Part shown: one piece after another, positions 19,834 through 64,000 of the stretch
How positions within the stretch are numbered: the first letter of the stretch is position 1
Layout of the letters: each line of letters begins with the position of its first letter
Virus record (IMG/VR): IMGVR_UViG_3300021185_002143
Span: 2,221-66,220 of that record
Length of the DNA stretch: 64,000 nucleotides
Direction: 5' to 3' (one strand)
Source: a virus
Taxonomy: Duplodnaviria; Caudoviricetes
Notes under the pieces: model-generated
Told to the model about the DNA's origin: nothing
Databases searched by the model: none
What the model saw: the letters and a program-made list of their open reading frames with translations, nothing else
Program-made: the position numbers and the translations under genes

Positions 19834-20001
19834 ATGAGTGAAGAAAATAAAGACAACGGACTCGACGCAATCTTACAAAACAAGTTTGTGCAAGAGCTCC
19901 TTAAATTCGTAAGTGATATCAGAAGCGCCTTAGGTGATGAGAAAGGTGAACTAGAGAACCATGAGGTTGTCGAGCGTGCACGTAACTCCTACAACAAGTA
20001 A
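19834..20001 (+). CDS. Small hypothetical protein
   Basis: MSEENKD start after an A/C-rich leader; stop overlaps next ATG. Confidence 0.55.
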   Translation: MSEENKDNGLDAILQNKFVQELLKFVSDIRSALGDEKGELENHEVVERARNSYNK

Positions 20002-27077: not shown

Positions 27078-27113
27078 ATGATTAAGAGTAGCAGATTCAG
27101 GAATCGGGGTCAA
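27078..27113 (-). promoter_or_regulatory. sigma70-like promoter TTGACC-N17-TACTCT, 7 nt before ATG
   Basis: Read directly. Confidence 0.6.
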
Positions 27114-36553: not shown

Positions 36554-36726
36554 TTACCAGAGTAGTCTACTAGGACAGGATTGAAACCCACGTCTAGACC
36601 GCCCTTCGCAGAGTAATCAATGACTGCTTCACCACCCATTGATTGCCCGTCACCCAAGGTAACAGTGACATCAAAAGGTAGGCAGGAAGAAAGCGATAAT
36701 GCTAATAGTGCAATGATATACTTCAT
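36550..36726 (-). CDS. Small lipoprotein (spanin-like candidate)
   Basis: MKYIIALLALSLSSC lipobox signal peptide. Confidence 0.6.
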   Translation of the reverse strand: MKYIIALLALSLSSCLPFDVTVTLGDGQSMGGEAVIDYSAKGGLDVGFNPVLVDYSGK

Positions 36727-36912: not shown

Positions 36913-38069
<1,157 letters not shown>

Positions 38070-43200: not shown

Positions 43201-43840
43201 TGTTATCTGTAATTTCAGATAGGGGATGGTTGTGTGAAACCGCTGCAAATGCTGTAGCGTCTTGCAACGCTGTGTCAGCTAGGTCGCCTTGTGCTGATGT
43301 TGCAAATGCTGTTGGATCTTGCAACGCTGTGGTTGCTAAAGTACCTTGCGCTGCTGTGGCAAAGTCGGTTGTATCTGCTGCGGCTGCTGTGCCTCTGTCT
43401 GAGATGTCGGAAAGGGTGTGGGTGTGTGCGGTCGGGTCACGGTCATCTGACAACCTAGAGTCATTACCTTTGACAACTTCTCCATCTGCTGCATTACCGA
43501 CTGTAGCTACATCAAGGCCAGCGGAGCTACCAGAACCAGTGATTTCTGATAGTGTGTGACTGTGTGTGGTTGGGGTTCTTGAATCACTCAGCCTTGGGTC
43601 GGTGGTGTCGATCAACGTGGCATCGGTAATGTCTGCATTAATAGACGCGAGATTACCTGCTTGAATGGCGTTGTCTGCCTTGGTTCCTTGCGTGGATGTG
43701 GCAAAATCACTTGTATTAGCTGAAGCAGCTGTGCCAGCATCGTTAATATCTGATAAAACGTGATCATGTATCACGTCTGCTTTTCCTTCTAGAGATCCAG
43801 AGACCCCTGTTAGCTTAATAACTTTGATTGGGTTGGACAT
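40223..43840 (-). CDS. Long tail fibre protein
   Basis: H.H.LS.I repeats, DFAT..QG..A..A repeats, NAFTDA repeats, GG..N beta-roll, C-terminal jelly-roll-like domain. Confidence 0.85.
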   Translation of the reverse strand: MSNPIKVIKLTGVSGSLEGKADVIHDHVLSDINDAGTAASANTSDFATSTQGTKADNAIQAGNLASINADITDATLIDTTDPRLSDSRTPTTHSHTLSEITGSGSSAGLDVATVGNAADGEVVKGNDSRLSDDRDPTAHTHTLSDISDRGTAAAADTTDFATAAQGTLATTALQDPTAFATSAQGDLADTALQDATAFAAVSHNHPLSEITDNNIVVRTTDVDVSSTSWVLDEVTLSSNSTTKVPTQASVKSYVDNEILQIDAVAQSFKGAYNALTNTPDLTSPSAISISAGDAYVVDTEGNFYSQLLLVGTTIIADSNNASTENEWTIVVNGLNATTVKTTYESNLDTNAFTDADQTKLTGIETAATADQTGAEIKTAYELEANTNAFTDADEQAVSDVIAGEYTRDDQTSVLGNGWVINDATMATATSSKLATSSSIKSYVDSLTGTNSDTMQFKGEYNATTNTPDLDGSAPREPVATGDAYIVSADGQFWTEDVTIGTLIIANEYNPSSLTGWEIISGGGAAELSELSDVTTAAVTDKFALMADGASYVGRALVEADISDLGTYSTASSTETLTNKTFDADGTGNSITNIDLTSDVIGDLPYSNLVSSTTASKLVGRGSALGAGDMQEINLGTGLTMSGTTISASGSAASNTVYGATWNGDTTNAASKNAIYDKIELLDAAIGAGGGGTVQGSSVTYDVLLASASGTAPVGTADKSVDLQAVRAASTQTSKGVSSVIGGGGNNSTDEAFAVVAGGSNNNNQSFAATISGGEYNQITGLSTQAAYSVIAGGRYNFIRSSSQASTVSGEYNEIDSSGQSSILGGKNNRITNSSYSTVSGGYGNLINTTSSGSRNVIAGGQTNEIQSSYSFVGAGQDNDILQGQRSAIVTGSGNSMSGYGGTDSCIAAGSSNTLSGYGCFIGGGSSCDIDGFFGGSTNTSIIGGSTNSAYYASNSVILGGRDCRLFYSDYTVMSGRRAKITVANKHGQFIYADDQDLDYVCNTERTANFRVANGMHITAPLFITERSSALADIAGRGQIWVKDATPNELWFTDDAGNDNALTGGTYGMLYNNANSATSSCNTIPTAVDWVSAGPSSGTTPTTTNNYIIIPSGGLYRVEANICCTTDVAGEYQFEIYYFNGANWSGTGFVADRAMPNNGDVGSATVSGIVNVAAGGQARLAVYQTIDSGSTTNFLVQSGQLVVTKL

Positions 43841-50694: not shown

Positions 50695-50964
50695 TTACCA
50701 CTTGACCTTGTTGGCCCAGTAGGCGGCGGACATCTTGCCCTTCTTAATGTTCTTAGCGTGGCGAGCTTTGAACGAGGCTTGACGCTTCGTGGGTTTCCTG
50801 TCCCCAGTTACACCCTGTTGTCCAAAGCGAATGAGTTTATGCTTACCGCCCTCACTAGCCATCACCACGTGACTCTTCTTAGGGTGCTTAGGTGTGCGCT
50901 TAGGTTTATTAACCCCAGCGAGACCTAGTCTTTTGATAGTAGCCTTGACGCGATCGGAAGCCAT
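50695..50964 (-). CDS. Small basic conserved phage protein
   Basis: KLIRFGQQG...RQASFKARH...MSAAYWA pattern; start MASDRVKAT. Confidence 0.7.
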   Translation of the reverse strand: MASDRVKATIKRLGLAGVNKPKRTPKHPKKSHVVMASEGGKHKLIRFGQQGVTGDRKPTKRQASFKARHAKNIKKGKMSAAYWANKVKW

Positions 50965-51716
50965 GTGATTAACATTACACAAGATCTATCTAATCGTCAA
51001 CGCTTGATCCCCCGTGGGGAGCGTGAGGCTAACCTCTGGGCAGCGAGCTTTGCACGAACAGATCTATATTTGGATTCGTCACCGTTAAAATATCTAATAA
51101 TAGCCTTTGCTTGTGCCTTTCTTAAATCTGCGACTGCATCACCCCTTGCATACAAAGTACCCATGGGATCTAGGAGGCCCTGTGCTATGTTCTGCCCCGC
51201 GCCTTTCAGGGAAAAGCCCCTTTCCCCCATGACCTTATGTTGTTCCCGAGCTTTTTCTCGTGCCTCCTCTGAGTTAGCGAGGGATGCGGCTTCATAGGCC
51301 ATTATAGCTGCTGTGACAGGTGGTGCTTTTTTTGCTATAAACTTCCCAGCTGCAGCCGCTTTAGAACCCCCTTGGATGATTCTCTCGGCAATTTTCTTTT
51401 TAGGAACCTGAGTCGGTCTTAACTGAACTGTTCGTGGAGTAGCTTGGGTGGGGCTTATCTGAACTGTTCTCGGGCTTGTCGGAAATGTTCTGGGTGTGGC
51501 TTGGGTGGCCTTTTTCTTAAGACCATTCTTGACGTAATTTACCACTTCAATGTTGTCCAACACATCATAGGTGGCCCCCAAATCTTGTTGCTCGGTTTTT
51601 TCGATGGCACGCCTAGCTCGGTCTAGTGTCTTAGACAAAACTTTCTTTTTTGTGGTAGCCTTGACGCGATCGGAAGCCATGCGGTTAACATTACACAAGA
51701 TCTACCCAGTCGTCAA
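50939..51716 (-). repeat. 62-bp direct repeat (50939-51000 and 51655-51716): promoter plus first 9 codons
   Basis: TTGACGA....TAGATCTTGTGTAATGTTAA.C.CATGGCTTCCGATCGCGTCAAGGCTAC in both copies. Confidence 0.9.
50997..51680 (-). CDS. Basic hypothetical protein
   Basis: Starts MASDRVKAT like the downstream gene; internal TQATPRT repeats. Confidence 0.65.
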   Translation of the reverse strand: MASDRVKATTKKKVLSKTLDRARRAIEKTEQQDLGATYDVLDNIEVVNYVKNGLKKKATQATPRTFPTSPRTVQISPTQATPRTVQLRPTQVPKKKIAERIIQGGSKAAAAGKFIAKKAPPVTAAIMAYEAASLANSEEAREKAREQHKVMGERGFSLKGAGQNIAQGLLDPMGTLYARGDAVADLRKAQAKAIIRYFNGDESKYRSVRAKLAAQRLASRSPRGIKR

Positions 51717-51912: not shown

Positions 51913-52196
51913 AATAGTATTTGTTTAACCCACGTAGCTAATCGAGTAGGCATGTGGTCGTATAGGTAAAGTCCAATGTGGATAATGACCACTAGTTCTC
52001 TAGGAATCCTGTATCGTGTAAGCTGCTTGATGAATCGTCTACGGTTGTGTGTCGTAGTGTTGGGATACTTATTAGTAAGTATATCGTGAAAGTCCCCTGC
52101 GCGATCAATGCGATACATGATCTCGGGTCCGTAATTACAAAGTATATACTCCCGAAGTAGGGTCGGGATTGACGCGCCATCTGTTTCTTGTTTCAT
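51909..52196 (-). CDS. Hypothetical protein
   Basis: 95 aa, ATGA-coupled. Confidence 0.55.
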   Translation of the reverse strand: MKQETDGASIPTLLREYILCNYGPEIMYRIDRAGDFHDILTNKYPNTTTHNRRRFIKQLTRYRIPRELVVIIHIGLYLYDHMPTRLATWVKQILL

Positions 52197-52732
52197 TCGT
52201 GCATCTCCGTTAGTTGTTTCATACGTTCTTCCTGCATCTCTTTAATCTGCTTGCGACTGTATGTCCGTGGTCGGAATGATACATCCCTTAGGTTGACTCG
52301 CTCGATGGGGCAACGACCGCTTGTCTCATCCAAGTAATACTTGACCTCTCGGAAGTATATACCCTGAGCATCCTCGGTCTGGTGATATACAGTCCCACCA
52401 TGGTCCACCAAGTAAAGACACCACAGGTCAGGTATCTCTATAAACTGAGAGCCAATCTCTCGAGGTCTATTAGGTAACCAGTCGTGATCTTCGCCCGCTG
52501 TTATCATAGCCTCCCTGCGAAGTGCGTGTGGGTTACGGCTACGTCTCTTACCATCGTCAAAGGTGATCTGGACACGCAGCTCTTTCCAGTTTCTGCCTTT
52601 GCGAGATGATGACGTAGTCTTAATAGGCTTGCGCGAGCCACTCTTTAGTAAGCGATATACCCTACCGTCAGAGGCGATCTCATACTTAGACGCGTTGGGT
52701 ATAGGGTAAAATTGTAGTGCGGTTTCGCTCAT
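52193..52732 (-). CDS. NUMOD4-like domain protein
   Basis: FYPIP....YEIASDGRV N-terminus with a degenerate second copy (FIEIP....YLVDHGGTV); leaderless-type promoter TTGACA-N16-TAGTAT at 52739-52766. Confidence 0.6.
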   Translation of the reverse strand: MSETALQFYPIPNASKYEIASDGRVYRLLKSGSRKPIKTTSSSRKGRNWKELRVQITFDDGKRRSRNPHALRREAMITAGEDHDWLPNRPREIGSQFIEIPDLWCLYLVDHGGTVYHQTEDAQGIYFREVKYYLDETSGRCPIERVNLRDVSFRPRTYSRKQIKEMQEERMKQLTEMHE

Positions 52733-53498: not shown

Positions 53499-53736
53499 CC
53501 GTCATCGTGATAAAGCAAGGTGTTGATTCGCCAAGCCATGCACCTATCTGGTTAAACTCAAAGAACTCTTCTGCCTCCTCATAGTCCATACCCTCCTTCA
53601 TATGCGCCGCGATGACTTTGTCACGGTCGTAGCAAATGATAGGTGGCTGCCCAAATCGTTCTACTATACCTACGATGCACTCGTCATACCCATCCATAAT
53701 GAGCATGTCCTCTGTAATTTCATCTTCTAATATCAT
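53482..53736 (-). CDS. Conserved phage hypothetical protein
   Basis: DGYDECIVG...YD..K...EEAEEFFEFN..GAW.GE.TP. Confidence 0.7.
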   Translation of the reverse strand: MILEDEITEDMLIMDGYDECIVGIVERFGQPPIICYDRDKVIAAHMKEGMDYEEAEEFFEFNQIGAWLGESTPCFITMTDEERT

Positions 53737-54137
53737 GACTTCTTGTTGTATGGGCTAATTGGTGCCTCGCCTCGGTCTTCGAGTGTGCGTTGCAATAGTG
53801 CTAACGCCCGCCACGCAACTTTCGCTGCATGTAGAATACCGTCATCATCGAGCTGGTCATACTGCATCAGGTGTCTGACTAGGCAGTCCGACTCATCGGT
53901 AGACTTCTCCCTCGCCCAATGAAGCGGTTCACCTGCATTGTGTTGGTCGTTTCCTGTCTTACTACACTTAGCTACCAGCCACAGTGCATCTGGGAAGTAG
54001 TTAAGCACTCCACTAAATATAGGCGCTTGCTTCCGTTCGTAACCCTTGTTCCAGCCTCCTTCGTCCTGTAGATAAGGCTTCGAGTCGCCTTCACCGACTC
54101 CTATACTGGACCATCCTTGTTTTTGTTTATCGCTCAT
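53733..54137 (-). CDS. dATP/dGTP diphosphohydrolase-like protein (DUF5664-type)
   Basis: ERK..PIFSGVL.YFPDAL..VA..S..GN.QH.....LHW.R.KS.D..D...RHL...HAAKVAWRALA. Confidence 0.7.
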   Translation of the reverse strand: MSDKQKQGWSSIGVGEGDSKPYLQDEGGWNKGYERKQAPIFSGVLNYFPDALWLVAKCSKTGNDQHNAGEPLHWAREKSTDESDCLVRHLMQYDQLDDDGILHAAKVAWRALALLQRTLEDRGEAPISPYNKKS

Positions 54138-54543
54138 TTTTGTGGTATGTATGTTTTCTTGACTATCATTTTATATCTGGTCCCTGCCCGTAGATCAAGT
54201 ATAATCAATACTTTCATTAATTTTTTCATATGCGTGTATATGTATAGTGTGCGCCCGCGCAAAAAAGACCGACCCCACCCGTAGGGTGTCCACAACTTCG
54301 CACTATAACACTAATGCGTGGTTCTAACCCCCTCTTACAGAGGGGGTTGGCTCAAACAGGCTGTGGAACATGACTCAAGAGTCATGATCCGTGGGTCATG
54401 TTACATGACTCAGGGTTAAGCGCGGACAAGGTGCGGAGCGTAGCTCGGCGCGATTGTCCATGCGAACCACATATGAACCCTGAACCCTGCTTCCCGAGCC
54501 GTTTGCCTCGCATCATGTATGTGTTGCCTCGAAGAGGGAGAGT

Positions 54544-54600
54544 TGCAATATGATATTTCAACTACCCCTTTAGGGGTAAACTTGGCTGTCCTAACTTAGA
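54544..54600 (+). repeat. Cassette-boundary element, copy 1 (divergent 3' half)
   Basis: tgcaatatgatatttcaactacccctttaggggtaaacttggctgtcctaacttaga. Confidence 0.9.
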
Positions 54601-54646
54601 TGGTGAAGCTGATGGCAATTCCGCTGATCACCTTCCCAATTACATT

Positions 54647-55333
54647 ATGAAAAACACAATCGACACATCCGCTAGTTATTCCGACATCAAGACTCAAGCT
54701 AAGACTGCTATCATCCAAGCAGGAACTGCTTTCCTATCCACAGTAAAGACTGTAGGTCTTTACCGAGCCGCTTTGACTCTCAAGTCTCCTCACTACGAAT
54801 CCGACCCAGCTAAAGCTTCCAGTCAAGCTTACAATCTCGTAGAGAAATGGCTTGTCCAGTCTGGTATTCCTAAGAAGCAAGCACGAGGGATTGCCAATAA
54901 CTCCAAAGGAGCTTCGCTCCTTGCTGAGAAAGTTCTCACCCTCGGTCTCTCCGAGACTGTTTACAACGCTGTTCCCACTGGGAACTGTGCCAAGGCATCC
55001 GAAGCGGTGACTGAGGAAAACGTAGCGGAGCTAAACAAGATCAAGCCCAGCAAAGCTGGTAGATTGAACAAGAAAGCCAAGGACAAGTTTGGTATCTCCG
55101 ATACCATAGCTAAGGAGACTCCCACTAAGAAGACGAAGTCTAGTAAGCCCAAGCCATGTGGCGAGAATCCAGATGCCCTTCACCCAGAGCTTGCATCTTG
55201 CTTAAGCAAGATCAACAAGATCAAGAAGAGCGTAGCTGAGGACTTGAACCACTCAGCGAAGCTGGAACTCAAGAGAGCCGTGCTTGACTTGCTCCACTCA
55301 CTCAGCCCAGCCGTGAACAGCGAAGCTGCTTAA
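54647..55333 (+). CDS. Early hypothetical protein (K/A/S-rich)
   Basis: 228 aa, first gene after the strand switch. Confidence 0.7.
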   Translation: MKNTIDTSASYSDIKTQAKTAIIQAGTAFLSTVKTVGLYRAALTLKSPHYESDPAKASSQAYNLVEKWLVQSGIPKKQARGIANNSKGASLLAEKVLTLGLSETVYNAVPTGNCAKASEAVTEENVAELNKIKPSKAGRLNKKAKDKFGISDTIAKETPTKKTKSSKPKPCGENPDALHPELASCLSKINKIKKSVAEDLNHSAKLELKRAVLDLLHSLSPAVNSEAA

Positions 55334-55354
55334 TTCCTTACCCTAAAGGGTAGT

Positions 55355-55423
55355 TGCAATATGATATTTCAACTACCCCTTTAGGGGTAAGAATGACTGT
55401 CCTACTTAGACTAACGACAACAC
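55355..55423 (+). repeat. Cassette-boundary element, copy 2
   Basis: tgcaatatgatatttcaactacccctttaggggtaagaatgactgtcctacttagactaacgacaacac. Confidence 0.95.
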
Positions 55424-55433
55424 AATCCAAATT

Positions 55434-55679
55434 ATGACCAAAGAAAAAGCAAAGCAAGTATTATCCGCCATGGCTTCCAAAGACTATGACACCCTCAGAT
55501 CCCTCAAGCTAGGGGTATTCGGAAACAAGGGCAGGTTGTGGACAAACACCGCCTGTCTCATGACTCTTGACTCTGTCAAGGGTGAGTGCAACCCCCGACT
55601 GTCTCACAACTATTGTGATGTCGAACAGATCGGATGCCCCAAGTGCATGGAGACCCTCGAGCTAATCGCTGAGGGTTAA
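55434..55679 (+). CDS. Small Cys-containing hypothetical protein
   Basis: 81 aa with C...CPKC; single-gene cassette. Confidence 0.65.
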   Translation: MTKEKAKQVLSAMASKDYDTLRSLKLGVFGNKGRLWTNTACLMTLDSVKGECNPRLSHNYCDVEQIGCPKCMETLELIAEG

Positions 55680-55688
55680 CCCTCAAGT

Positions 55689-55760
55689 TGCAATATGATA
55701 TTTCAACCCCCCTCTTACAGAGGGGGTGAATGACTGTCCTACTTAGACTAACGACAACAC
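55689..55760 (+). repeat. Cassette-boundary element, copy 3 (alternative hairpin)
   Basis: Central hairpin replaced by ccccctct-tac-agaggggg. Confidence 0.95.
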
Positions 55761-55766
55761 CATCCT

Positions 55767-55949
55767 ATGAAACTACACAGCAAGCTAATTGCCCTTACCA
55801 TCCACCTGTTCACCAAGCACTACTTGTTCTCCCAAGAGTGGAGAAAAGGGAACGGCATTAAGAACTGGCTCTATGAGCATGGCATCATTGAAGCCGTCCA
55901 GATCAATCTCGAATTACTTCAACTACGAGTCGAAGACTTATCCAAATAG
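55767..55949 (+). CDS. Hypothetical protein
   Basis: 60 aa directly after the repeat leader. Confidence 0.55.
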   Translation: MKLHSKLIALTIHLFTKHYLFSQEWRKGNGIKNWLYEHGIIEAVQINLELLQLRVEDLSK

Positions 55950-55953
55950 AACC

Positions 55954-56232
55954 ATGAAACGTAAAGCAAGATACTTCCTCACAATATTCGATTCAGTCTA
56001 CAAATTCGACAAGCCCTACATGCTATGCAACGACGGCAAGCTCCGAGACTTCGTCTGGTTCGGCACAGTCAAGTCTGCCCTCAAGATCTACCGATCTGAG
56101 GGTTGGGCAATCCGTAAAGCCAGCGAGCTGGTGAGATCTGGTCAAGTGGGTAGCGTTGTTATCAACTATGCATATGATGGCGAGACCATCAGCAACCGAG
56201 GCGAGATCATCAAACCACAATCTGCAATATGA
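55954..56232 (+). CDS. Hypothetical protein; stop codon lies inside repeat copy 4
   Basis: MKRKARY...KPQSAI*. Confidence 0.65.
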   Translation: MKRKARYFLTIFDSVYKFDKPYMLCNDGKLRDFVWFGTVKSALKIYRSEGWAIRKASELVRSGQVGSVVINYAYDGETISNRGEIIKPQSAI

Positions 56233-56291
56233 TATTTCAACTACCCCTTAAGGGGTAAGAATGACTGTCCTACTTAGACTAACGACAACAC
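56223..56291 (+). repeat. Cassette-boundary element, copy 4
   Basis: tgcaatatgatatttcaactaccccttaaggggtaagaatgactgtcctacttagactaacgacaacac. Confidence 0.95.
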
Positions 56292-56306
56292 AAACCAAAC
56301 ATTACC

Positions 56307-57044
56307 ATGCGAACCAAACTACCTAAGCTCAGCCAATCCTACTTACTGCATGAAGATGCTAATGTCTTCATCGTCGCATCATCCAAATCATCTAACGTCA
56401 AGACAGGTGACATGATCCAGATCTGGATACTCGATAACACCAGACACCCAGTAGACTCAAGACGAGACAAGCACGATGCATTGAACCAATGCAAAGGATG
56501 TGTCCTAGCTAGTGGCAATGGTTGTTATGTCAACGCCAATCCACTATCAGCAATCTACCGCAAGCACAAGTCCGACAACCCATACCCCCAACTTGTCGCT
56601 GGTTCATTGGAGTTCCGTAGGTTCTTCTCTGGTAAGAAGGTGCGGTTCGGTGCATATGGAAACCCTAGCATGATTCCTTTACCCTTAACCCAGAGCATTG
56701 CAAAGCTGGCATCCAAGTGGACTGGATACTTCCACGACTGGCACATGATGTCACCAGATGATGCCCGTGCTTATGGCAAATACTTCATGGCATCCTGCGA
56801 GTCTACCAATTACCAAGATGCACAAGCACTAGGACTCCGCACCTTCACCACAGTAGTCAACACCCCAGACGACAAGCAGACTGGTATGGAATGCCTAGCT
56901 GATAGCCATGATATGCAATGTGCAGAGTGTGGTCTGTGTGATGGCACGAACCGCAGAGATGGCAAGCTACCCAATGTATGGATCAAGGTGCATGGATACC
57001 AGACCAAGAAAGCATCCGTAGCTACTACCAAATCTGCAATATGA
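56307..57044 (+). CDS. Cys-rich Fe-S / radical-SAM-like phage protein; stop inside repeat copy 5
   Basis: SNVKTGDM, CKGC......CYV, VRFGAYGNP, TGYFH.W, MASCE, C..CGLC. Confidence 0.6.
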   Translation: MRTKLPKLSQSYLLHEDANVFIVASSKSSNVKTGDMIQIWILDNTRHPVDSRRDKHDALNQCKGCVLASGNGCYVNANPLSAIYRKHKSDNPYPQLVAGSLEFRRFFSGKKVRFGAYGNPSMIPLPLTQSIAKLASKWTGYFHDWHMMSPDDARAYGKYFMASCESTNYQDAQALGLRTFTTVVNTPDDKQTGMECLADSHDMQCAECGLCDGTNRRDGKLPNVWIKVHGYQTKKASVATTKSAI

Positions 57045-57103
57045 TATTTCAACTACCCCTTAAGGGGTAACAATGACTGTCCTACTTATACTAACGACAA
57101 CAC
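57035..57103 (+). repeat. Cassette-boundary element, copy 5
   Basis: Two substitutions relative to copy 4. Confidence 0.95.
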
Positions 57104-57123
57104 AAACCAAACCAAACCAAAGC

Positions 57124-57456
57124 ATGAACTATAATTTATTAGTAAACAACTACTCAGAAGAAACCCCCTGTATCGCAGTAATTAAAGATGTAAACCTTAA
57201 AGAATTAGATTCTTTTATATCCACATTGGAGTTAGTTCTTCAGGAGCATTATTGTGGTGGTAGTTCCGTAACATTTCCTAACGGATTCCCAGATTACATT
57301 TCATCAAAACCATTTCCAGTTTTCTGGGTTGATTTTCAAGTAGAAGAAGACAATGGAGATACTCTTTGGAATAGTCGAGTAGAGATTTCTTGTATAGCTA
57401 TCTATGATTGCCCATCGAATGATGATCCAGAATTAGATAAGCTAAACATGGATTGA
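57124..57456 (+). CDS. Hypothetical protein (AT-rich cassette)
   Basis: Likely start MNYNLL; visibly more A/T-ending codons than neighbours. Confidence 0.6.
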   Translation: MNYNLLVNNYSEETPCIAVIKDVNLKELDSFISTLELVLQEHYCGGSSVTFPNGFPDYISSKPFPVFWVDFQVEEDNGDTLWNSRVEISCIAIYDCPSNDDPELDKLNMD

Positions 57457-57475
57457 CTAACCCCCGAACACAATC

Positions 57476-57544
57476 TGCAATATGATATTTCAACTACCCC
57501 TTAAGGGGTAAGAATGACTGTCCTACTTATACTAACGACAACAC
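57476..57544 (+). repeat. Cassette-boundary element, copy 6
   Basis: One substitution relative to copy 4; leader identical through to ATG. Confidence 0.95.
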
Positions 57545-57559
57545 AAACCAAACATTACC

Positions 57560-57730
57560 ATGACTAAAGAACATAAGTGCGATGCTATCGCCAGACACGA
57601 AGCCAGCATTGCGACCGAGCTTGAAGTATACAACCTCCTCATTGATGGGTGTCCCGCCCTCATCGACATGAAAGATGAAGAGATAGATCAACTCATGTCA
57701 GACTACAACATCCCAACCCAAACCAAATAG
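57560..57730 (+). CDS. Small hypothetical protein (below ORF cutoff)
   Basis: MTKEHKCDAIARHEAS...NIPTQTK. Confidence 0.55.
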   Translation: MTKEHKCDAIARHEASIATELEVYNLLIDGCPALIDMKDEEIDQLMSDYNIPTQTK

Positions 57731-57734
57731 AACC

Positions 57735-57953
57735 ATGAGATATATACTAGACATCGCTCAAACAAATGAGACACCCGCCAACTACGCCAAGAAGTTCATG
57801 CAAGATTTCTGTGAGACAATGGAGGATCACATCGTCACCATCGTGTGCATTGATGAGACTAATGACAACCAGTTTCACAATGACCCTACCAAGAATACGC
57901 TGACTGATACACAACTTCAGCGTTACTCTGACTACTGCCATCGTGAAGACTAA
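57735..57953 (+). CDS. Hypothetical protein
   Basis: 72 aa. Confidence 0.55.
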   Translation: MRYILDIAQTNETPANYAKKFMQDFCETMEDHIVTIVCIDETNDNQFHNDPTKNTLTDTQLQRYSDYCHRED

Positions 57954-58080
57954 ACCCAAACCAAACCAATAATATGCAATACAGTGACCATATGATACCC
58001 ATCATCGAGATACGTAAAATATTAGAATCATTAAACCAAACCCAAACCAAATAGAAACCAAACCTATACCAAATAAACAT

Positions 58081-58311
58081 ATGCAAGTAAAACTAATGAC
58101 CCATGGATGGGGAGACAATGATCTACCCATCGACTCCGACAACCAAGTGCTACCATCCCATGTCAATGACGTAGCATTACGTGATGTGGTATTCAATGCG
58201 AAGCAACCCGACTCATTGGATGACAGTAACTTCAACCTGTTCATCTGGGTCGGGGATAGTGGCTGGCTCGTTCAGTCTGCTGACTTTGAGTTCGTAACAT
58301 TTACACCATAA
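58081..58311 (+). CDS. Hypothetical protein
   Basis: 76 aa after an A/C-rich leader. Confidence 0.55.
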   Translation: MQVKLMTHGWGDNDLPIDSDNQVLPSHVNDVALRDVVFNAKQPDSLDDSNFNLFIWVGDSGWLVQSADFEFVTFTP

Positions 58312-58315
58312 CCAA

Positions 58316-58549
58316 ATGAAAACAATAATACATGTAAACCAGCACACCATCCGTGCCAACAGCAAGACAGGTGAGCGCAACCCAGTGCTTACTTGCAAGA
58401 CATACAAGTCCAATGACTACGCCAAGCGTGTCGAGATCCTCGATGATGATGGCGAGGTGACTGCGACTGTGGTCTATAGCCCAGACAAACCACTATCATG
58501 TGGTGCTAAAGTCTGGATCGAAACACAGCAACCTGTAACACTCTCCTAA
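58316..58549 (+). CDS. Conserved phage hypothetical protein
   Basis: IHVNQH.IRAN.K.G...PVLT.K....N.Y....VVYSPDKPLSCGAKVWIET. Confidence 0.75.
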   Translation: MKTIIHVNQHTIRANSKTGERNPVLTCKTYKSNDYAKRVEILDDDGEVTATVVYSPDKPLSCGAKVWIETQQPVTLS

Positions 58550-58574
58550 AATAATATAAAATAGTGATTGCCAA

Positions 58575-58596
58575 ATGGCTGTCCTACTTATACTAA
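58575..58596 (+). repeat. Partial cassette-boundary element (3' half only)
   Basis: atggctgtcctacttatactaa. Confidence 0.75.
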
Positions 58597-58655
58597 TACT
58601 CAACACCCCCTCACTAACCACAACAAACAACAAACAACAAACACAAACAAACATT

Positions 58656-59705
58656 ATGTCCCACGAAATAACAAACATCGACTCCGTCCTCGTCCCTAAT
58701 CACTCCAAGTATGCTGCATGGCATGGTCTTGAGAAGCGTGTCGGGGATAGCATCCACCTCTCTGACGTAGAGGAACACGGACTACACCCTCAGATTGTAG
58801 AGGGAACTGTAACTGCTGGCATTGCTGGTCAGCAGGTAACCCTCAAGGATTACAAAAGCCTCTGCGCTTTGACCAACCTAGGTGAACTCCACCCCCTGCA
58901 CATTAGTGGCAACCGCTACTCTGTCATCCAGAACCGAGACGTTTGGAAGGCTATGTCTACTGCCTTCCAAGGTGTTGACATGGACTACAAGCTGACCTGT
59001 GTCGGCACACTATGTGGTCTACGTAGATACTTTATCTCAGTTGAGGTAGGTGATGCTGGTGGTTTCTCTGTCAATGGCGACAAGTTCCACGGCAACATTA
59101 ACTTCGTGACCAGTCACGATGGGTCACTTGCCTTCCGAGCCTACGACTCCATGATCAGGATTGTGTGTAACAACACACTCAACTGGTCAGTCGAAGGTGA
59201 GAAGAACATTGACTTCAAGGTATACCACAAGGGTGATGCCAAGGTAGCTTGTCATCAGCTGGGTAAGTATCTCAATGATGTCCTACAAGGTAGGTCTATC
59301 TTCACCGAGAAGATGGAAGAGCTTGCCTCGTTCCAAGTGAGGAACGCAGACATCGAAGCTGTGGTCGGAGGCTACTTCATCAACAAGGCACACGACCGAG
59401 GTGAGAAGCTCGAGACATTCAGCACCCGAACACTCAACCAAGTGCAGGGCATTGCTGACCTAGCCCGACATGGTCGAGGCAACCAAGGACGTAACATGTA
59501 TGATGTCCTCAATGGTGCGACCGAGTTCTGGACCAGCGGTGATGGTGTAGGTAAGTCTACCACCCAAGGACGTAGAGCATTCAGCTCTGAGTTTGGCACA
59601 GGTGCTGACCGCAAGCAGGAGTTCTCCCGCTACCTCATCAAGGGTAACTACGAACCATCCGCTGACGAAGCACAGCGTGTGCTGAATGCTACCCTCGCTG
59701 GATAA
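58656..59705 (+). CDS. DUF932 / TIGR03299-like protein
   Basis: AWHGL, Y.VIQN, SHDGS......IRIVCNNTL, NGATEF. Confidence 0.85.
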   Translation: MSHEITNIDSVLVPNHSKYAAWHGLEKRVGDSIHLSDVEEHGLHPQIVEGTVTAGIAGQQVTLKDYKSLCALTNLGELHPLHISGNRYSVIQNRDVWKAMSTAFQGVDMDYKLTCVGTLCGLRRYFISVEVGDAGGFSVNGDKFHGNINFVTSHDGSLAFRAYDSMIRIVCNNTLNWSVEGEKNIDFKVYHKGDAKVACHQLGKYLNDVLQGRSIFTEKMEELASFQVRNADIEAVVGGYFINKAHDRGEKLETFSTRTLNQVQGIADLARHGRGNQGRNMYDVLNGATEFWTSGDGVGKSTTQGRRAFSSEFGTGADRKQEFSRYLIKGNYEPSADEAQRVLNATLAG

Positions 59706-59762
59706 CCATGAACCATGAACCCCGAACCCTGTCTCCTGTATCGGGAGGCAGGGTCAACCAAC

Positions 59763-59831
59763 TGCAATATGATATTTCAACTACCCCTTAAGGGGTAATA
59801 ATGACTGTCCTACTTAGACTAACGACAACAC
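59763..59831 (+). repeat. Cassette-boundary element, copy 7
   Basis: tgcaatatgatatttcaactaccccttaaggggtaataatgactgtcctacttagactaacgacaacac. Confidence 0.95.
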
Positions 59832-59846
59832 AAACCAAATAAACAT

Positions 59847-60413
59847 ATGAAACCTAAATTAATAACAGCAGACAATTCCTACCTCAAGTTCGAGGGAACA
59901 TCAGACCAAGCGTTCGACTTCATCGACGCAATGGCACAACTAGATGCCTCGAAAAACATGAGCGACTTGGTATTCAATATCGAAGTTGCCCTGCAACGGG
60001 AAGGATTTCTTGATGAAGACTTCAACCGAGTTGATGATACACTCAGCTACCCATTCGAGGATGGTGACACCTTCTACACAATCGAGAATGGTCTAGTCAT
60101 TGAGTCGGTGTGGGACGAACAAGCCGAAGAGGTGCATGATGATAATCCAGATTGTGTCTACTACAAATGCCACGGTGATGCAGTGCACGAACACAAGGCA
60201 CAGCTACTTGAGTTCCTATCCAACAACCTCCGAGCTGACTACTTCAAAGACCAGAGCAACCTGTATCAAAGTGCCATCAACTACATCACCTCAACTGAGA
60301 GCACTCTATGCTCCAACTGTGGACACGACCTAGGCTATGGCTACATGAACTGTGGTGCTGGCATAGCAGGGGACTGCCCAGAATGTGGTCACAACAATAA
60401 GCAACTACATTAA
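59847..60413 (+). CDS. Acidic protein with C-terminal Zn ribbon
   Basis: CSNCG...CPECG. Confidence 0.65.
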   Translation: MKPKLITADNSYLKFEGTSDQAFDFIDAMAQLDASKNMSDLVFNIEVALQREGFLDEDFNRVDDTLSYPFEDGDTFYTIENGLVIESVWDEQAEEVHDDNPDCVYYKCHGDAVHEHKAQLLEFLSNNLRADYFKDQSNLYQSAINYITSTESTLCSNCGHDLGYGYMNCGAGIAGDCPECGHNNKQLH

Positions 60414-60419
60414 AACATC

Positions 60420-60620
60420 ATGATCTTTACATACTGTATCATCTTACTGATCACTACATACCTAGGTTCTGTAGCATTATCAATCGCCACCCAAAGCCAC
60501 GATGGCAAGCCAGACTTATGGATCGCACTCATTGACGCATGGGTCACAACCATCAGCATCATCGTCGGACTCGGTGTGGTGTGGGTTACAATCTCTGGCG
60601 TGTTCCTCTTGGTTTCATAA
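60420..60620 (+). CDS. Small two-TM membrane protein
   Basis: Two hydrophobic stretches. Confidence 0.55.
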   Translation: MIFTYCIILLITTYLGSVALSIATQSHDGKPDLWIALIDAWVTTISIIVGLGVVWVTISGVFLLVS

Positions 60621-60633
60621 CACACTAAACACT

Positions 60634-60870
60634 ATGACAAACAACATAAACATACGAGGCTGGATCATAACAGCCGAGCCCTACTCCGATCCCAAAGTCC
60701 TCATCGACATCGAGTCACCATGCGGTAAGTATGGATCGAGCCTAGCCCTAGCCGAAGACACAGGTAGTGTGGAAGATTACCACACCCTGTCTAAAACAAA
60801 AGCTGTGCCTACCTCTGTGTTGAGGAGAGCACAAGAAATAGAAGAAACATATTACAACCAAACCAAATAG
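60634..60870 (+). CDS. Hypothetical protein
   Basis: Likely start MTNNIN. Confidence 0.55.
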   Translation: MTNNINIRGWIITAEPYSDPKVLIDIESPCGKYGSSLALAEDTGSVEDYHTLSKTKAVPTSVLRRAQEIEETYYNQTK

Positions 60871-60883
60871 AACAAACACCAAT

Positions 60884-61093
60884 ATGAAAGAGATTATATA
60901 CACAATTGATTGGGTCAACAAGCTGGGTGCACACTACAGGCACCACACCGACAGTCTAGAAACTGTGGGTGCTAACTTGCTCACCCGATACAAGTCTAGG
61001 CAAACAGCAACTGCCAAAGATGACAAGGGAGTAGTCATTGGACGAGCATGGAAAGACGAGAGAGCATGGAACTGGTATCTAGACCAGCAATAA
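60884..61093 (+). CDS. Hypothetical protein
   Basis: 69 aa in the early gene run. Confidence 0.55.
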   Translation: MKEIIYTIDWVNKLGAHYRHHTDSLETVGANLLTRYKSRQTATAKDDKGVVIGRAWKDERAWNWYLDQQ

Positions 61094-61108
61094 TAACCAA
61101 CCAAACAT

Positions 61109-61438
61109 ATGACAAATATACCAGTAACACCAACAGATACCTACAACCTACTCATAGATTATCCTATGACCACCCCACCCACAGTTGCTGTGCTCCGAGA
61201 CCTAGTATGCTCTGACCCTAGCCCGCTGAGGCAAAAGCTAACGACTGCACTGATTAATTTCTTTGAAGCTGATGACGCCACCTTCGGAGACATAGAGTCA
61301 TCCTACCCATGTACTGTGGCCTTTGAAGTTAGCGGGGATGAGCAACCTTGGTGGTTTGACGCAGGTCTTGACCAGTGCGACGGAACCCCCAACCAGTGGA
61401 GAGGCGAGGTGATCCTTGACTATGTTCCTACTTACTAA
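61109..61438 (+). CDS. Hypothetical protein
   Basis: 109 aa. Confidence 0.55.
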   Translation: MTNIPVTPTDTYNLLIDYPMTTPPTVAVLRDLVCSDPSPLRQKLTTALINFFEADDATFGDIESSYPCTVAFEVSGDEQPWWFDAGLDQCDGTPNQWRGEVILDYVPTY

Positions 61439-61476
61439 CACCAACCAAACCAACAACACAAACCAATAGAAACACT

Positions 61477-61704
61477 ATGCAAGAATACACAAACAGATAC
61501 GGAATGACTTTTAAAGTCGGACAAGTAGGGACGTTGACAAGACGCTTCAAGATGCACGATGGGGAGAAGCTAACTATTACAGGCTTCACTCCAACGGGTC
61601 GATTCATGCACACAGAAAACGAGCGAGGCACAAGATACTCTTTCACTACCGAAAGTCAAATCCTTCGCGGATCTCACATGGGAAACTGTAAAATCACATT
61701 CTAA
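61477..61704 (+). CDS. Small beta-barrel-like hypothetical protein
   Basis: FKVGQ....LTITGFTPTGR. Confidence 0.55.
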   Translation: MQEYTNRYGMTFKVGQVGTLTRRFKMHDGEKLTITGFTPTGRFMHTENERGTRYSFTTESQILRGSHMGNCKITF

Positions 61705-61718
61705 CCCCAACCAAACAT

Positions 61719-61955
61719 ATGACAACAACACAAGTAACACTACCCATCCACATGATTGACATCGTGCGGTATAAGAACTGGACTGGCCTCACTGTGGCCC
61801 AACTCTTCCACGCTGGGAGACTAGGATCCAATGGTGCAGACAAGAAGAACATCGAACGCTTCGCCCTCCACATGCACCAACCTCGAGACCTCGACGAGCA
61901 CCATGCTCTCATGGCCTTGGCTAACGATGCATACGAATACCTACTTAACGAATAA
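61719..61955 (+). CDS. Hypothetical protein
   Basis: 78 aa. Confidence 0.55.
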   Translation: MTTTQVTLPIHMIDIVRYKNWTGLTVAQLFHAGRLGSNGADKKNIERFALHMHQPRDLDEHHALMALANDAYEYLLNE

Positions 61956-61959
61956 GACA

Positions 61960-62118
61960 ATGCAAGTAACCATAACAATAGATGCAACGAGTGAGCGCCA
62001 GCTTACTGACTCCCTAATGAAACTAGCCACCAACATATCTGATACGGATACTGGGTCATATGACCTGATGGATGGGTCATACCAGATCGAAGAAGCCAAC
62101 GTAGAAATACAACCATGA
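61960..62118 (+). CDS. Small hypothetical protein
   Basis: MQVTITIDA start. Confidence 0.5.
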   Translation: MQVTITIDATSERQLTDSLMKLATNISDTDTGSYDLMDGSYQIEEANVEIQP

Positions 62119-62498
62119 AACAACTAAGCAAACAAGAGATGGTCAATAAAATGACCACCCATATAAACTCCACTTACAACCTACTCAACACACTTGTTGA
62201 CCAGACCGACCCCGAAAGCATCCGTGCGCTATATGATAAGTACATAAACGATACGGAAGAAGAAGAAGAAGAGGAAATGTGGAGCGGATACCTGCCAACT
62301 AATCTGGAAGTACAGCTTGTCAGTCTAGGAGGTGAGTGGGCAGTCGATATCCGAGAGCGAGCCAAGCATGAAGATGATGCCGACCGTTGTCTGGACGGGT
62401 ATCTCTTCTTTCACTCTTATAAGGAAGCCCGAGCCCTGTATCACAAAGCAGTAGCCTATCACGTACACCACCCAGTCACAACCTTAGGAGAACTATAA
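62115..62498 (+). CDS. Hypothetical protein with poly-E linker
   Basis: 127 aa. Confidence 0.55.
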   Translation: MKQLSKQEMVNKMTTHINSTYNLLNTLVDQTDPESIRALYDKYINDTEEEEEEEMWSGYLPTNLEVQLVSLGGEWAVDIRERAKHEDDADRCLDGYLFFHSYKEARALYHKAVAYHVHHPVTTLGEL

Positions 62499-62500
62499 CA

Positions 62501-62764
62501 ATGATTACCCACGACGAAGATGCGGAGTGCACGACATATGTTATACACCTAGATGGTCAGGCAGGTAACAGCATGTATCTCCTAGGCATGGCACAGAAGT
62601 TTATGCGAGACCAGTATCAAGACAAAGACACCACGGACAACCTACTACTAGAGATGCAGGGCGGTGACTACCACCACCTCATCAAGACATTCGACAATGC
62701 ATTCGGCAACGATGTCACACTAGTGACTACTGACGAAGACATCCTAGCCCTCAACCACCTATGA
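62501..62764 (+). CDS. Conserved phage hypothetical protein
   Basis: I.LDG.AGN...LLG.A...M..GDY.HL..TFD..FG pattern. Confidence 0.65.
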   Translation: MITHDEDAECTTYVIHLDGQAGNSMYLLGMAQKFMRDQYQDKDTTDNLLLEMQGGDYHHLIKTFDNAFGNDVTLVTTDEDILALNHL

Positions 62765-62943
62765 TATATCTACTCCTACCCTGTATCCTGATTCCTCTAT
62801 CCTGTTACACGATCTATTACCTATGGGTCACGTATCATAATGATAAGTATCTATCCAAGCTGAGGCGTAAAGCTGACGCACAACTCAAGGACGACACACA
62901 CCGCACCTTCCTTCTCACCATACAAAACAAAACCAACAAATAA
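62761..62943 (+). CDS. Small single-TM protein
   Basis: Hydrophobic N-terminus, basic tail. Confidence 0.5.
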   Translation: MIYLLLPCILIPLSCYTIYYLWVTYHNDKYLSKLRRKADAQLKDDTHRTFLLTIQNKTNK

Positions 62944-62947
62944 AAAC

Positions 62948-63241
62948 ATGAAACTAGAAACACAAAAACTAAATGTAATCCGCAAGTTTGAATCCTCAGC
63001 TTACCAACGCATCAGCGTCAAGCAAGCCCTGTCATTATTCTACCTAGATGAGGACGACATCACAACCACCGCCCTCGCCAAGAGGGTGGGCGTAACAAGT
63101 GCTGCCGCTACTGGTATGGTGGACCGCATGGTGGACCGAGGCTTAGTAGTCAGGAACCGCAACCGCTCCGACCGAAGGGTCATTACTGTGCAGATCACCG
63201 ACCAAGGCCGAGGCGTAGTATCACGTATCATCAACTCCTAA
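62948..63241 (+). CDS. MarR-family winged-helix regulator
   Basis: LAKRVGVTSAAATGMVDRMVDRGLV.R.....DRRVITVQITDQG. Confidence 0.9.
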   Translation: MKLETQKLNVIRKFESSAYQRISVKQALSLFYLDEDDITTTALAKRVGVTSAAATGMVDRMVDRGLVVRNRNRSDRRVITVQITDQGRGVVSRIINS

Positions 63242-63277
63242 CTCAACCCAACCCACAACAAACCAAACTATAATATT

Positions 63278-63721
63278 ATGAAACCAACAAACAACAACAG
63301 CGTAACCACTATCCACCCTTATGTATACCACGGCGAGTGGGTCTTCGATGATGAGTCCCGTGGCCTAGACAAGGAAGCCTTTGTATCTGGGGCAGACTCT
63401 ATCATGGACATGCTATACCTCACCGCACAAGGAGCGACCGAAGCATTCATACCCGAGACAGGTCAGTTCAGTCTTAGGTTTTCTGATACCCGATTCAAAG
63501 GACACCATTATAAGTTTGACTGGGTCGAGGACAACGGCATGAAGTATGACGATGACCAATGGAATCATTATGTAGAGCACACTACAGGTATTAGTGGGTG
63601 GCTGTGCCCCGCTCTGCTAAGGTTCTTCCCTGACGCACCCCGTTGTATCTATGTTGAGGCTGTTAAGTATAGTGCTGGTCGAGCAGTCAGCGATGAAGTT
63701 TTGTCTGCCATACAAGATTAG
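63278..63721 (+). CDS. Conserved hypothetical protein (DUF6717-like)
   Basis: I.PY.Y.G.WVFDD...GL.KEAFV.GAD...GWLCPAL..FF..AP..IYV. Confidence 0.7.
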   Translation: MKPTNNNSVTTIHPYVYHGEWVFDDESRGLDKEAFVSGADSIMDMLYLTAQGATEAFIPETGQFSLRFSDTRFKGHHYKFDWVEDNGMKYDDDQWNHYVEHTTGISGWLCPALLRFFPDAPRCIYVEAVKYSAGRAVSDEVLSAIQD

Positions 63722-63732
63722 CACCTAGCATT

Positions 63733-64000
63733 ATGAGCAACAACAAAATGCCGAGGACGTCATTTGCTAAATCCTTGGGGGCACCAACCCCCAAGGATTA
63801 TGACCAACTAGTCCAACGTGCTAGTGAATTGTCTGGCATCTCGATGACCGATTTGCTATCATCAAAGCGCACCCAGAGGGTGAGTCAATGGAGACAATCT
63901 ATCTTCTTTGTGCTCCGCCACATGGGTGCTACCTTCCAAGAGATTGGAGCATACTTCAACAGGACACATGGCACCATCATTCATGGGTGCAATACCCTAG
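63733..64000 (+). CDS. DnaA domain IV-like HTH protein (partial; runs off window)
   Basis: Translated by hand: ...GISMTDLLSSKRTQRVSQWRQSIFFVLRHMGATFQEIGAYFNRTHGTIIHGC. Confidence 0.75.
   Translation, partial: MSNNKMPRTSFAKSLGAPTPKDYDQLVQRASELSGISMTDLLSSKRTQRVSQWRQSIFFVLRHMGATFQEIGAYFNRTHGTIIHGCNTL

Follow-up and report, generated by a model that had tools for sequence, protein, structure and literature searches.

A repeated dyad-hairpin-box element borders early-gene cassettes that differ among close relatives of an uncultured marine phage

Introduction

The closest described counterparts of the locus treated here, a repeated element of 75–95 nt heading early genes of an uncultured marine tailed phage, are the promoter-early stem-loop (PeSL) cassettes of T4-type phages (Arbiol et al. 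2010, PMC2839356; Comeau et al. 2014, PMC4122927). The locus was analyzed in a window of 64,000 nt comprising bases 2221–66220 of a 66,220-nt virus record (IMG/VR, IMGVR_UViG_3300021185_002143); positions given below are those of the window. As far as the two cited accounts go, PeSLs are composite units of about 70–100 bp made up of an AT-rich part, a GC stem-loop, and a promoter; copies of them precede small orphan early genes within a hypervariable region, and closely related phages differ by insertion, deletion, or replacement between two copies with one chimeric copy left. All of this applies to the element of the marine phage, with its promoter as a putative part, and no dedicated recombinase appears in either system. 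Recombination between the repeated PeSL units was proposed and in part demonstrated by Arbiol et al., and mini-circles as well as promoter and terminator activities have been shown experimentally (PMC2839356, PMC4122927); the corresponding activities of the element described here are putative. A preliminary description of this DNA had likened the array to PeSL cassettes, and the comparison proved apt, with a stem-loop, a hyperplastic location, and indels leaving chimeric motifs all found here. Its further suggestion of an undescribed system is not upheld, because the array works like the PeSL regulatory cassettes in their published form. There are differences: PeSLs, in these accounts, are defined by consensus −35 and −10 boxes and end in a Shine–Dalgarno sequence, whereas the element shows no σ70 consensus match and its leaders lack a Shine–Dalgarno sequence. 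It also has an extra invariant dyad of 19 nt, and, whereas the carriers of PeSLs are T4-type myoviruses, the phage of the window is not T4-like.

Integrons comprise an IntI-type tyrosine recombinase gene located beside the array and promoterless cassettes that are driven by one common promoter. The phage locus resembles them in that unrelated small genes are separated by a repeated imperfect palindrome, and the preliminary description had drawn this analogy; it fails in that no integrase was found, each cassette has its own putative promoter box in place of a single common promoter, and the joints fit homologous crossover, some of them lying at plain linkers. A literature search for similar arrays outside T4-type phages yielded only a paper on halovirus HF2 as relevant (Russ et al. 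2021, PMC8707807). According to that work, intergenic repeats of HF2 of 29–58 bp or more carry promoters, lie upstream of genes, and are conserved in position among related viruses. Conserved repeats upstream of genes are also found in the marine phage, where a promoter role would be analogous; HF2, however, is an archaeal virus with archaeal promoters at fixed positions, whereas the cargo between the repeats turns over here. The stoperators of cluster A mycobacteriophages (PMC9283540) are likewise described as many identical, oriented intergenic sites of a protein-binding type in one direction of transcription, and in this respect they suggest how the invariant dyad might work, with a regulator bound to it that blocks or controls transcription. 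In the same account, stoperators are asymmetric 13–14-bp sites bound by a monomeric immunity repressor throughout the genomes of temperate phages, whereas the marine phage has a near-symmetric 8-1-8 dyad at seven sites of the early region and no sign of lysogeny.

Results

Copies of the element

In full copies, the element reads from 5' to 3' as an AT-rich dyad, a GC hairpin, a box consisting of GACTGTCCTRCT and the hexamer TAKACT, and an A/C-rich leader. A search for the 17-nt dyad TGCAATATGATATTTCA allowing up to three mismatches (chance expectation, 0.20 matches) identified exactly seven sites on the plus strand, at 54544, 55355, 55689, 56223, 57035, 57476, and 59763; seven matches on the minus strand were the palindromic images of the same sites. 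The 22-nt box ATGACTGTCCTACTTAKACTAA gave seven matches at a chance expectation of 0.01, six of them exact and one, with a single mismatch, in a half copy at 58575. Copy 54544 was absent from these matches because its box is diverged (TTGGCTGTCCTAACTTAGATGG). The seven full copies and one 3' half copy of the preliminary description were thereby recovered, all on the plus strand, and no further copy was found elsewhere in the 66,220-nt record, on the minus strand, or with a covariance model built from 20 copies. The element pattern had no match in the genomes of 185,579 prokaryote species, and the box pattern had none in IMG/VR. The dyad alone gave eight single, unrelated matches in IMG/VR, which were taken as chance.

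Consecutive full copies are spaced by 811, 334, 534, 812, 441, and 2287 nt, so that the element recurs in direct orientation every 0.3–1.2 kb when the half copy is counted. Every copy is located on the coding strand between the stop codon of the upstream gene and the ATG of the downstream gene. Most copies had been said to differ by only 1–2 nt, which is true of five of the seven; the five copies at 55355, 56223, 57035, 57476, and 59763 are 83–100% identical over 94 nt.

The first copy, E1 (54544–54646), is located in a divergent intergenic region at the start of the array and comprises the dyad, a hairpin with a TTTA loop, the diverged box (GGCTGTCCTAACTTAGATGG), and a leader extending to the ATG of gA. 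E2 (55355–55433) is preceded by a second hairpin (TACCCTAAAGGGTA), which results in an imperfect palindrome of 49 nt, and E3 (55689–55766) has the alternative hairpin CCCCCTCTTACAGAGGGGG. In two copies the TGA stop codon of the upstream gene lies inside the dyad, namely that of gD in E4 (56223–56306) and that of gE in E5 (57035–57123). E5 and E6 (57476–57559) have the TATACT variant of the hexamer. The half copy (58537–58655) consists of a box (ATGGCTGTCCTACTTATACTAA) and a long A/C-rich leader without dyad or hairpin and heads a DUF932 gene, and E7 (59763–59846) is the last copy, followed by approximately 4.2 kb of small genes with no more copies. Separately, the divergent intergenic region before E1 (54300–54540) contains a free-standing hairpin of the E3 type (CCCCCTCTTACAGAGGGGG) at 54326–54350 and a cluster of inverted CATGACTC/GAGTCATG repeats at around 54368–54412; it is a possible origin or regulatory region.

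Cassette turnover in close relatives

Joint Genome Institute (JGI) metagenome contigs were scanned for the dyad together with the core of the box, which returned six contigs, five of them distinct. Contigs L034 and L037 overlap and represent one phage approximately 80% identical to the window, and L035, L036, L038, and L039 are 90–98% identical to it. The preliminary description had named as the decisive test whether the cargo varies among relatives with breakpoints at the element, and it does: one cassette (gX) is gained, one (gB) is lost, and one (gE) is swapped. The extra gene gX (100–106 amino acids) lies between two copies in L039 and in L034; at the corresponding place the window has one copy, E2. 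This copy is itself chimeric and combines those on either side of gX in L039: its left flank and TTTA loop are those of the upstream copy and its leader is that of the downstream copy, with the crossover inside a stretch of 45 nt identical in both L039 copies. In L036 the gB cassette is absent, and a single chimeric copy is present instead, with its left side as in E2 and its leader as in E3. In L034 an unrelated gene of 258 amino acids takes the place of gE, which is kept in the window and in L035, and the replaced stretch begins at the ATG that follows one copy and ends with the first base of the dyad in the next. One chimeric copy as opposed to two copies plus cargo, with the switch located within the 45 identical nucleotides, is the signature of homologous crossover between copies.

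Further downstream, L035 joins copy E5 directly to gH, and in L034 a homolog of gene 61719 has moved in, the order of gH and gG is reversed, and three genes are foreign to the window; the joints of these rearrangements in both contigs fall in plain A/C-rich linkers. A script-based count gave 18 unique ends of alignment blocks. Nine of them lie within 10 nt of an element, inside it or at its edges, five lie at plain A/C-rich linkers, and two are in the last 11–18 nt of gG, which are linker-like; the remaining two represent an alignment gap in the leftward genes and not a rearrangement. With elements making up 13.8% of the region, nine of 18 ends at elements corresponds to a binomial P of 2.7e-4. 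The proposed function of the element as a recombination joint is supported by these ends, but the element is not the sole joint, because about half of the ends lie elsewhere, at plain A/C-rich linkers. Concerted evolution is also apparent: at one box position, each of the 14 copies from window-type genomes has T and each of the six L034 copies has A. Copies are homogenized within a genome, and exchange between copies is therefore required.

Part of the region was contained in 24 DNA runs from 20 studies, mostly marine. Four marine or viral metagenome runs were examined as Logan contigs, which stop at every copy. Loose contig ends with alternative neighbors were found at 57109 (X1, X5), 57121 (X3), 59850 (X1), and 59762 (X3); at the last of these, the DNA before E7 continues into a leader like that of gene 61109. 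These alternative neighbors at copies show that the cassette content varies in nature. Two joints, 55430>57026 and 57969>59831, were not used, each being represented by one contig with a short side of 20–30 nt and unknown sequence between. The very high depth at 58421–58822 is due to cross-mapping of the low-complexity A/C-rich leader.

Conservation and anatomy of the element

Twenty copies were aligned, the seven of the window and 13 from the five related contigs. TGCAATATGATATTTCAAC and G.CTGTCCT are invariant in 20 of 20 copies, including all six from L034, where the DNA around the copies is no more than about 80% identical to that of the window. The dyad, which is near-symmetric (8-1-8) with A or T at 13 of its 17 bases, is invariant over 19 nt. 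The hairpin occurs in four sequence forms derived from three stems: TACCCCTTAAGGGGTA, the same stem with a TTTA loop, CCCCCTC-TTACA-GAGGGGG, and CCCCCC-TT-GGGGGG, with loops of 2–5 nt. In the preliminary description TACCCCTTAAGGGGTA had been assigned to every copy; it is present in four of the seven, two others having the TTTA loop and copy 55689 the stem CCCCCTC..GAGGGGG. All 126 cells of the 7-bp stem (18 distinct copies × 7 pairs) are paired, and compensatory changes have altered both sides in four of the seven pairs. The covariation score was reached by none of 500 shuffles, shifted registers were only 48–73% paired, and the centroid fold keeps the hairpin. From the covariation of the hairpin and the invariance of the dyad it follows that the former is kept as a structure and the latter as a sequence.

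In the box, a conserved GRCTGTCCTRCT precedes a variable hexamer, which reads TAGACT, TATACT, TATTAT, or TAGAGT and has the TAnnnT pattern of a −10 element. Approximately 28 nt of the box are conserved, far beyond what a −10 hexamer needs. The box had been regarded as fixed in all full copies, which applies to six of them and not to copy 54544. The distance from the end of TAKACT to the ATG is 17–31 nt in the six canonical full copies, 44 nt in E1, and 61 nt in the half copy. In the half copies of the window and L034 the box is kept, and the dyad and hairpin are replaced by an AT-rich stretch with TTGCCA or TTGCTA 15 nt upstream of the hexamer; that of the window has TTGCCA before TATACT. In the distant relative L016, a canonical TTGCAT-N17-TATTAT precedes the same DUF932 gene.

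No Shine–Dalgarno sequence was found before any gene of the genome, leaders of the element included. Leaders and intergenic linkers are A/C-rich, of the type TAAACCCAAACCAAACCAATAATATG, and G-poor linkers (AACCAAACCAAACC...) precede start codons, for example at 57954–57974, 58030–58080, and 58597–58655. Such linkers are common to the whole clade (L016, L020, L023, L034), and AACCCTGAACCCTG repeats occur in relatives. An ATG in the box opens MTVLL... frames in the window, but a leader peptide was rejected because this ATG is not conserved in L034, which has AAG in all seven of its box copies including the half copy. Box-like motifs were also noted outside the array, namely CTGTCCTAGTAGACT at 36560–36600 (minus strand), approximately 25 nt upstream of an amidase (endolysin-type) gene (35927–36553), TGTCCTAAC upstream of a tail gene (40223–43840), and TCCTACTTAATAT directly upstream of the gene at 13457–14509; they may represent promoters of this class that lack both dyad and hairpin.

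Related designs in distant relatives

Relatives in IMG/VR were found with a DUF932 alignment, the DUF932 protein alone giving none. They have structural genes in common with the phage of the window and almost no early genes. L020 with five copies and L023 with three carry a repeated element composed of a GC stem, a CCCTTTAAAAGGG hairpin, a CYGTCCT box, and an A/C-rich leader. Between these two phages the element is 80–88% identical, the late genes are 79–83% identical at the nucleotide level, and the DUF932 proteins are 40% identical; their other early cargo is unrelated. Neither has the dyad, yet both show the same cassette behavior. The distance between hairpin and box is approximately 9 nt in the window versus approximately 18 nt in L020/L023, which argues that hairpin and box are separable modules. 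From its recurrence in L020 and L023, the design would be older than the element of the window.

L017 and L024 have a different repeat with CCCCGCTTCGGCGGGG and CGTAGCTCACAGC, and a canonical TTGACT-N17-TATACT occurs in the early region of L021. At positions 427–1853 of L024, 341–1502 of L017, and 7229–8283 of L020, the GC hairpin (CCCCGCTTCGGCGGGG) and CGTAGCTCACAGC are followed by a second, long hairpin that reaches with its 3' arm right up to the ATG, which suggests that the start codon is hidden in a structured 5' leader. As another observation on this clade, tandem units of 12–14 nt lie upstream of the DUF932 gene in L016 (2049–2194, GAGGGTAATCCA, nine times) and L018 (4586–4855, GTGTCCGGTCTG-like, 16 times), with nothing similar at that place in the window.

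Early genes and genome context

The early region is a block of approximately 9.7 kb of small plus-strand genes with the array at its start; in relatives, this block is located between the structural genes and a giant gene. Each interval between copies holds 1–5 small open reading frames (ORFs). The ten cargo ORFs gA–gJ (54647–58549, plus strand) comprise gA (54647–55333), gB (55434–55679), gC (55767–55949), gD (55954–56232), gE (56307–57044; weak DUF7227 match, phrog_2554), gF (57124–57456), gG (57560–57730), gH (57735–57953), gI (58081–58311), and gJ (58316–58549). The anti-host or anti-defense role that had been proposed for the cargo is putative; seven of the ten proteins have no PHROG family, and the other three fall in families of unknown function. 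The cargo had been called unrelated, in agreement with the finding that none of 24 early ORFs resembles another (BLASTP, E ≤ 0.01). The DUF932 protein is encoded by gK (58656–59705, plus strand; Pfam E 1.9e-27), which is conserved in all relatives and anchors their early region. Further relatives among ENA and Logan contigs show 79–90% identity in this protein. The rest of the region after E7 (59847–64000, plus strand) consists of about 12 small ORFs with A/C-rich linkers between them, among them genes for a MarR-family winged-helix DNA-binding protein of 97 amino acids (62948–63241, plus strand; PF01047, E 1.3e-11), a DUF6717 protein (63278–63721, plus strand), and a DnaA-C-like helix-turn-helix protein (63733 onward, plus strand). 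No Rfam family matched in the region, and no tRNAs were found.

Genes recognized in the genome encode a terminase, a helicase, a PD-(D/E)XK/DUF2800 exonuclease, a family-A DNA polymerase, a primase, tail proteins, and an amidase. No T4-type core genes were seen in the genome, which measures 66 kb and has replication genes of the DNA polymerase A type. The DNA polymerase is approximately 25% identical to any counterpart from a cultured phage, and among 50,697 phage records no match was obtained for the terminase, for a conserved 759-amino-acid protein, or, with blastn in distant mode, for region 54300–60100. The preliminary description had seen no integrase in the window, which was borne out: no catalytic domain of an integrase or transposase was found in 32 of the 37 ORFs of at least 150 amino acids, the other five, unscanned, lying within or overlapping longer ORFs, mostly on the opposite strand. 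The exonuclease (20001–21131, plus strand) is the sole recombination-type enzyme recognized in the genome.

The giant ORF of 4118 amino acids (minus strand) occupies 3–11960 of the window and continues into the first 2220 bases of the record. Its product has no Pfam, PHROG, or PDB-sequence match. Metagenome homologs are 54–69% identical over most or all of their length, remoter ones share cores at residues of approximately 400–900, 1890–2465, and 3090–4080, and none carried an informative family. A structural model of residues 1296–2465 (pLDDT 62, pTM 0.31) showed no polymerase fold and gave no Foldseek match at E ≤ 0.001. An Atlas search with the protein returned scores all below 0.9, with weak leads to LPD domains of polyvalent proteins.

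Several further features of the phage were noted. A weak lead to the host is L040, a 2610-nt contig in a metagenome-assembled genome titled uncultured Opitutae bacterium (Verrucomicrobiota bin), which contains the only match of the clade's DUF932 family (49% identity) among the genomes of the 185,579 prokaryote species. A protein of 274 amino acids (37245–38069, minus strand; phrog_27463), with adjoining nucleotide-sugar-type genes (27110–28386), is 27–30% identical to products of annotated sulfotransferase genes from Synechococcus phages S-SKS1, S-SRM01, and S-SCSM1 and from marine single-cell virus records. Possible homing-endonuclease-type genes are located at 52193–52732 (minus strand) and 19176–19820 (plus strand); one of the two has a weak AP2-domain match (E 2.8e-4), and the other an N-terminal motif that we take to resemble NUMOD4. 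Finally, a 70-nt repeat occurs in two copies (50931–51000 and 51647–51716), 89% identical and 716 nt apart, which flank the ORF at 50997–51698.

Discussion

The element is, in our judgment, probably a composite regulatory unit that heads early transcription units, with general homologous recombination between its copies shuffling the cassettes. The repeat with its anatomy, a covarying hairpin, cassettes that differ between natural relatives and end at the element, and the lack of an integrase in the ORFs scanned are direct observations; the promoter, terminator, and operator roles of its parts and the choice of recombination enzymes acting on it are inferences. The AT-rich 8-1-8 dyad would be bound by a dimeric regulator or would belong to the promoter as an upstream element; the MarR-family protein of the phage, whose gene is located downstream in the early region, is possibly its binder. 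The GC hairpin would act as an insulator or as a terminator against transcription from the upstream cassette. It would be followed by the core promoter, GACTGTCCTRCT and the −10-like TAKACT, with a start site expected approximately 7 nt downstream, and by a short unstructured A/C-rich leader without Shine–Dalgarno sequence up to the ATG. Units of 75–95 nt repeated in direct orientation would allow general homologous recombination between copies, and this exchange would delete, insert, or replace the intervening genes and homogenize the copies. A dedicated integrase would not be needed, and the shorter A/C-rich linkers may act as secondary joints. By analogy with the PeSLs of T4-type phages, the mechanism is likely ordinary homologous exchange between repeated regulatory units.

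Several observations weigh against this assignment, in particular against its transcriptional part. A scan for σ70 consensus promoters placed none of the 11 sites found in 53500–64000 within any element, and none of 11 terminator-like sites from a scan for hairpins with T-runs was at an element; the conserved hairpin is followed by AAGAATGAC and not by a T-run. Full copies have no recognizable −35 hexamer, because the 3' arm of the hairpin occupies that place. The box was also compared by eye with the consensus sequences of σ54, σE, and Bacteroidota-type promoters, and none fitted. E1 keeps both dyad and hairpin, yet no plus-strand gene lies upstream of it, and termination of upstream transcription cannot therefore be the whole function of these two parts. 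TAKACT as such is not kept in L020 and L023; the letters after GTCCT in these two are TTGAAAT or TTAAAAC. As for recombination, plain linkers account for about half of the block ends, and ends confined to intergenic DNA are also what random recombination plus selection for intact genes would give. The close relatives were fished with the element as query, so that contigs without any copy could not be seen. The Logan contigs, which break at each copy, contained only the two weak joints and no repeat-to-repeat deletion junction, and the runs listed for the region, 24 of DNA, included none of RNA.

Some of these points would be accounted for if the element were a repeated promoter or operator and nothing else, with recombination having no particular part in it, gene-breaking recombinants being lost, and the element filling much of the intergenic space. 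All 18 block ends are either intergenic or in the last 11–18 nt of a gene, seven to nine of them at plain A/C-rich linkers, and the missing junction contigs and recombinase gene point the same way. On the other hand, the two simple indels are exact, and a switch inside a 45-nt identical stretch is expected from homologous crossover and not from random joining; copies homogenized within a genome likewise require exchange. We regard this explanation as rather unlikely. Recombination would also be a mere side effect if a phage-specific polymerase or factor that enters together with the DNA, for instance as part of the 4118-amino-acid protein, used the element as its early promoter and the hairpin belonged to that promoter. 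The virion RNA polymerase of phage N4 is a giant virion protein with a T7-like polymerase domain, and the hairpin of its promoters has a 3-nt loop and a fixed distance from the start. The absence of a σ70 consensus match and of a −35 hexamer, a hairpin conserved as a structure without a T-run, and the approximately 28 conserved nucleotides of the box, more than a −10 needs, are all in line with such a promoter, as are the differences of the box between sub-lineages (CYGTCCT in the window, L020, and L023 versus CGTAGCTCACAGC in L017 and L024), the clade-conserved giant gene abutting the early region, and the position of the TTTCAA of the dyad approximately 18 nt from TAKACT if the hairpin were extruded. 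This proposal is improbable, however, given the variable distance between hairpin and box (approximately 9 versus 18 nt), the half copies that lack the hairpin and have the −35-like hexamer TTGCCA, and the canonical σ70 promoters in the same region of L016 and L021; moreover, the giant protein has no family match, and the modeled part shows no polymerase fold.

That a recombinase recognizes the dyad or the folded palindrome and moves cassettes as circles, as in integrons, would agree with a 19-nt dyad invariant in 20 copies, with cassettes bounded on both sides of which one is replaced by an unrelated gene, and with the 49-nt imperfect palindrome of E2. It is nevertheless very unlikely: no tyrosine or serine recombinase or transposase domain was found in the ORFs scanned, the crossovers appear to lie in the box and not in the dyad, many joints are at plain linkers, and L020 and L023 show the same cassette behavior without the dyad. 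We give hardly any credence to a small non-autonomous mobile element, similar to a miniature inverted-repeat transposable element, that has spread into intergenic sites. The copies are short, palindromic, numerous, and nearly identical, but the seven of the window and the 13 of the relatives all have one orientation and a fixed register with the next ATG, terminal inverted repeats and target duplications are missing, and no copy was found outside the early region or in the 185,579 species genomes.

Returning to the composite regulatory unit with exchange between its copies, it is doubtful, though worth stating, that dyad and hairpin form a structure or site for a phage-delivered factor (part of the 4118-amino-acid protein or the MarR-like protein) that fires early promoters lacking a −35 hexamer on entry and stimulates the exchange of copies. 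If true, this would be a dedicated system for expressing and shuffling early-gene cassettes without an integrase, conserved in a clade of uncultured marine phages, and its CYGTCCT box would stand outside the known promoter classes.

Compared with the described systems, the phage lineage is new, and so are the unclassified putative promoter box that distant relatives also carry, the invariant dyad, the leaders without Shine–Dalgarno sequence, and the clean natural cases of gain, loss, and replacement of single cassettes. The last of these provide population data on single-cassette turnover at nucleotide resolution. Three differences from PeSLs, namely the missing −35 hexamer, the long conserved box found again in distant relatives, and the invariant dyad, may point to early transcription of an unusual kind, and the A/C-rich linkers imply that the host, or the way in which translation is initiated, is independent of Shine–Dalgarno pairing. 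In virome annotation, the early hypervariable region of the clade can be recognized by the element and the A/C-rich linkers, and the cassettes, to whose cargo no functions are assigned, represent a defined candidate set for finding anti-defense genes. The locus thus extends the PeSL principle to an unrelated lineage of uncultured marine phages: repeats acting as putative terminators and promoters would double as crossover points, and orphan early genes would travel as ready-to-express modules.

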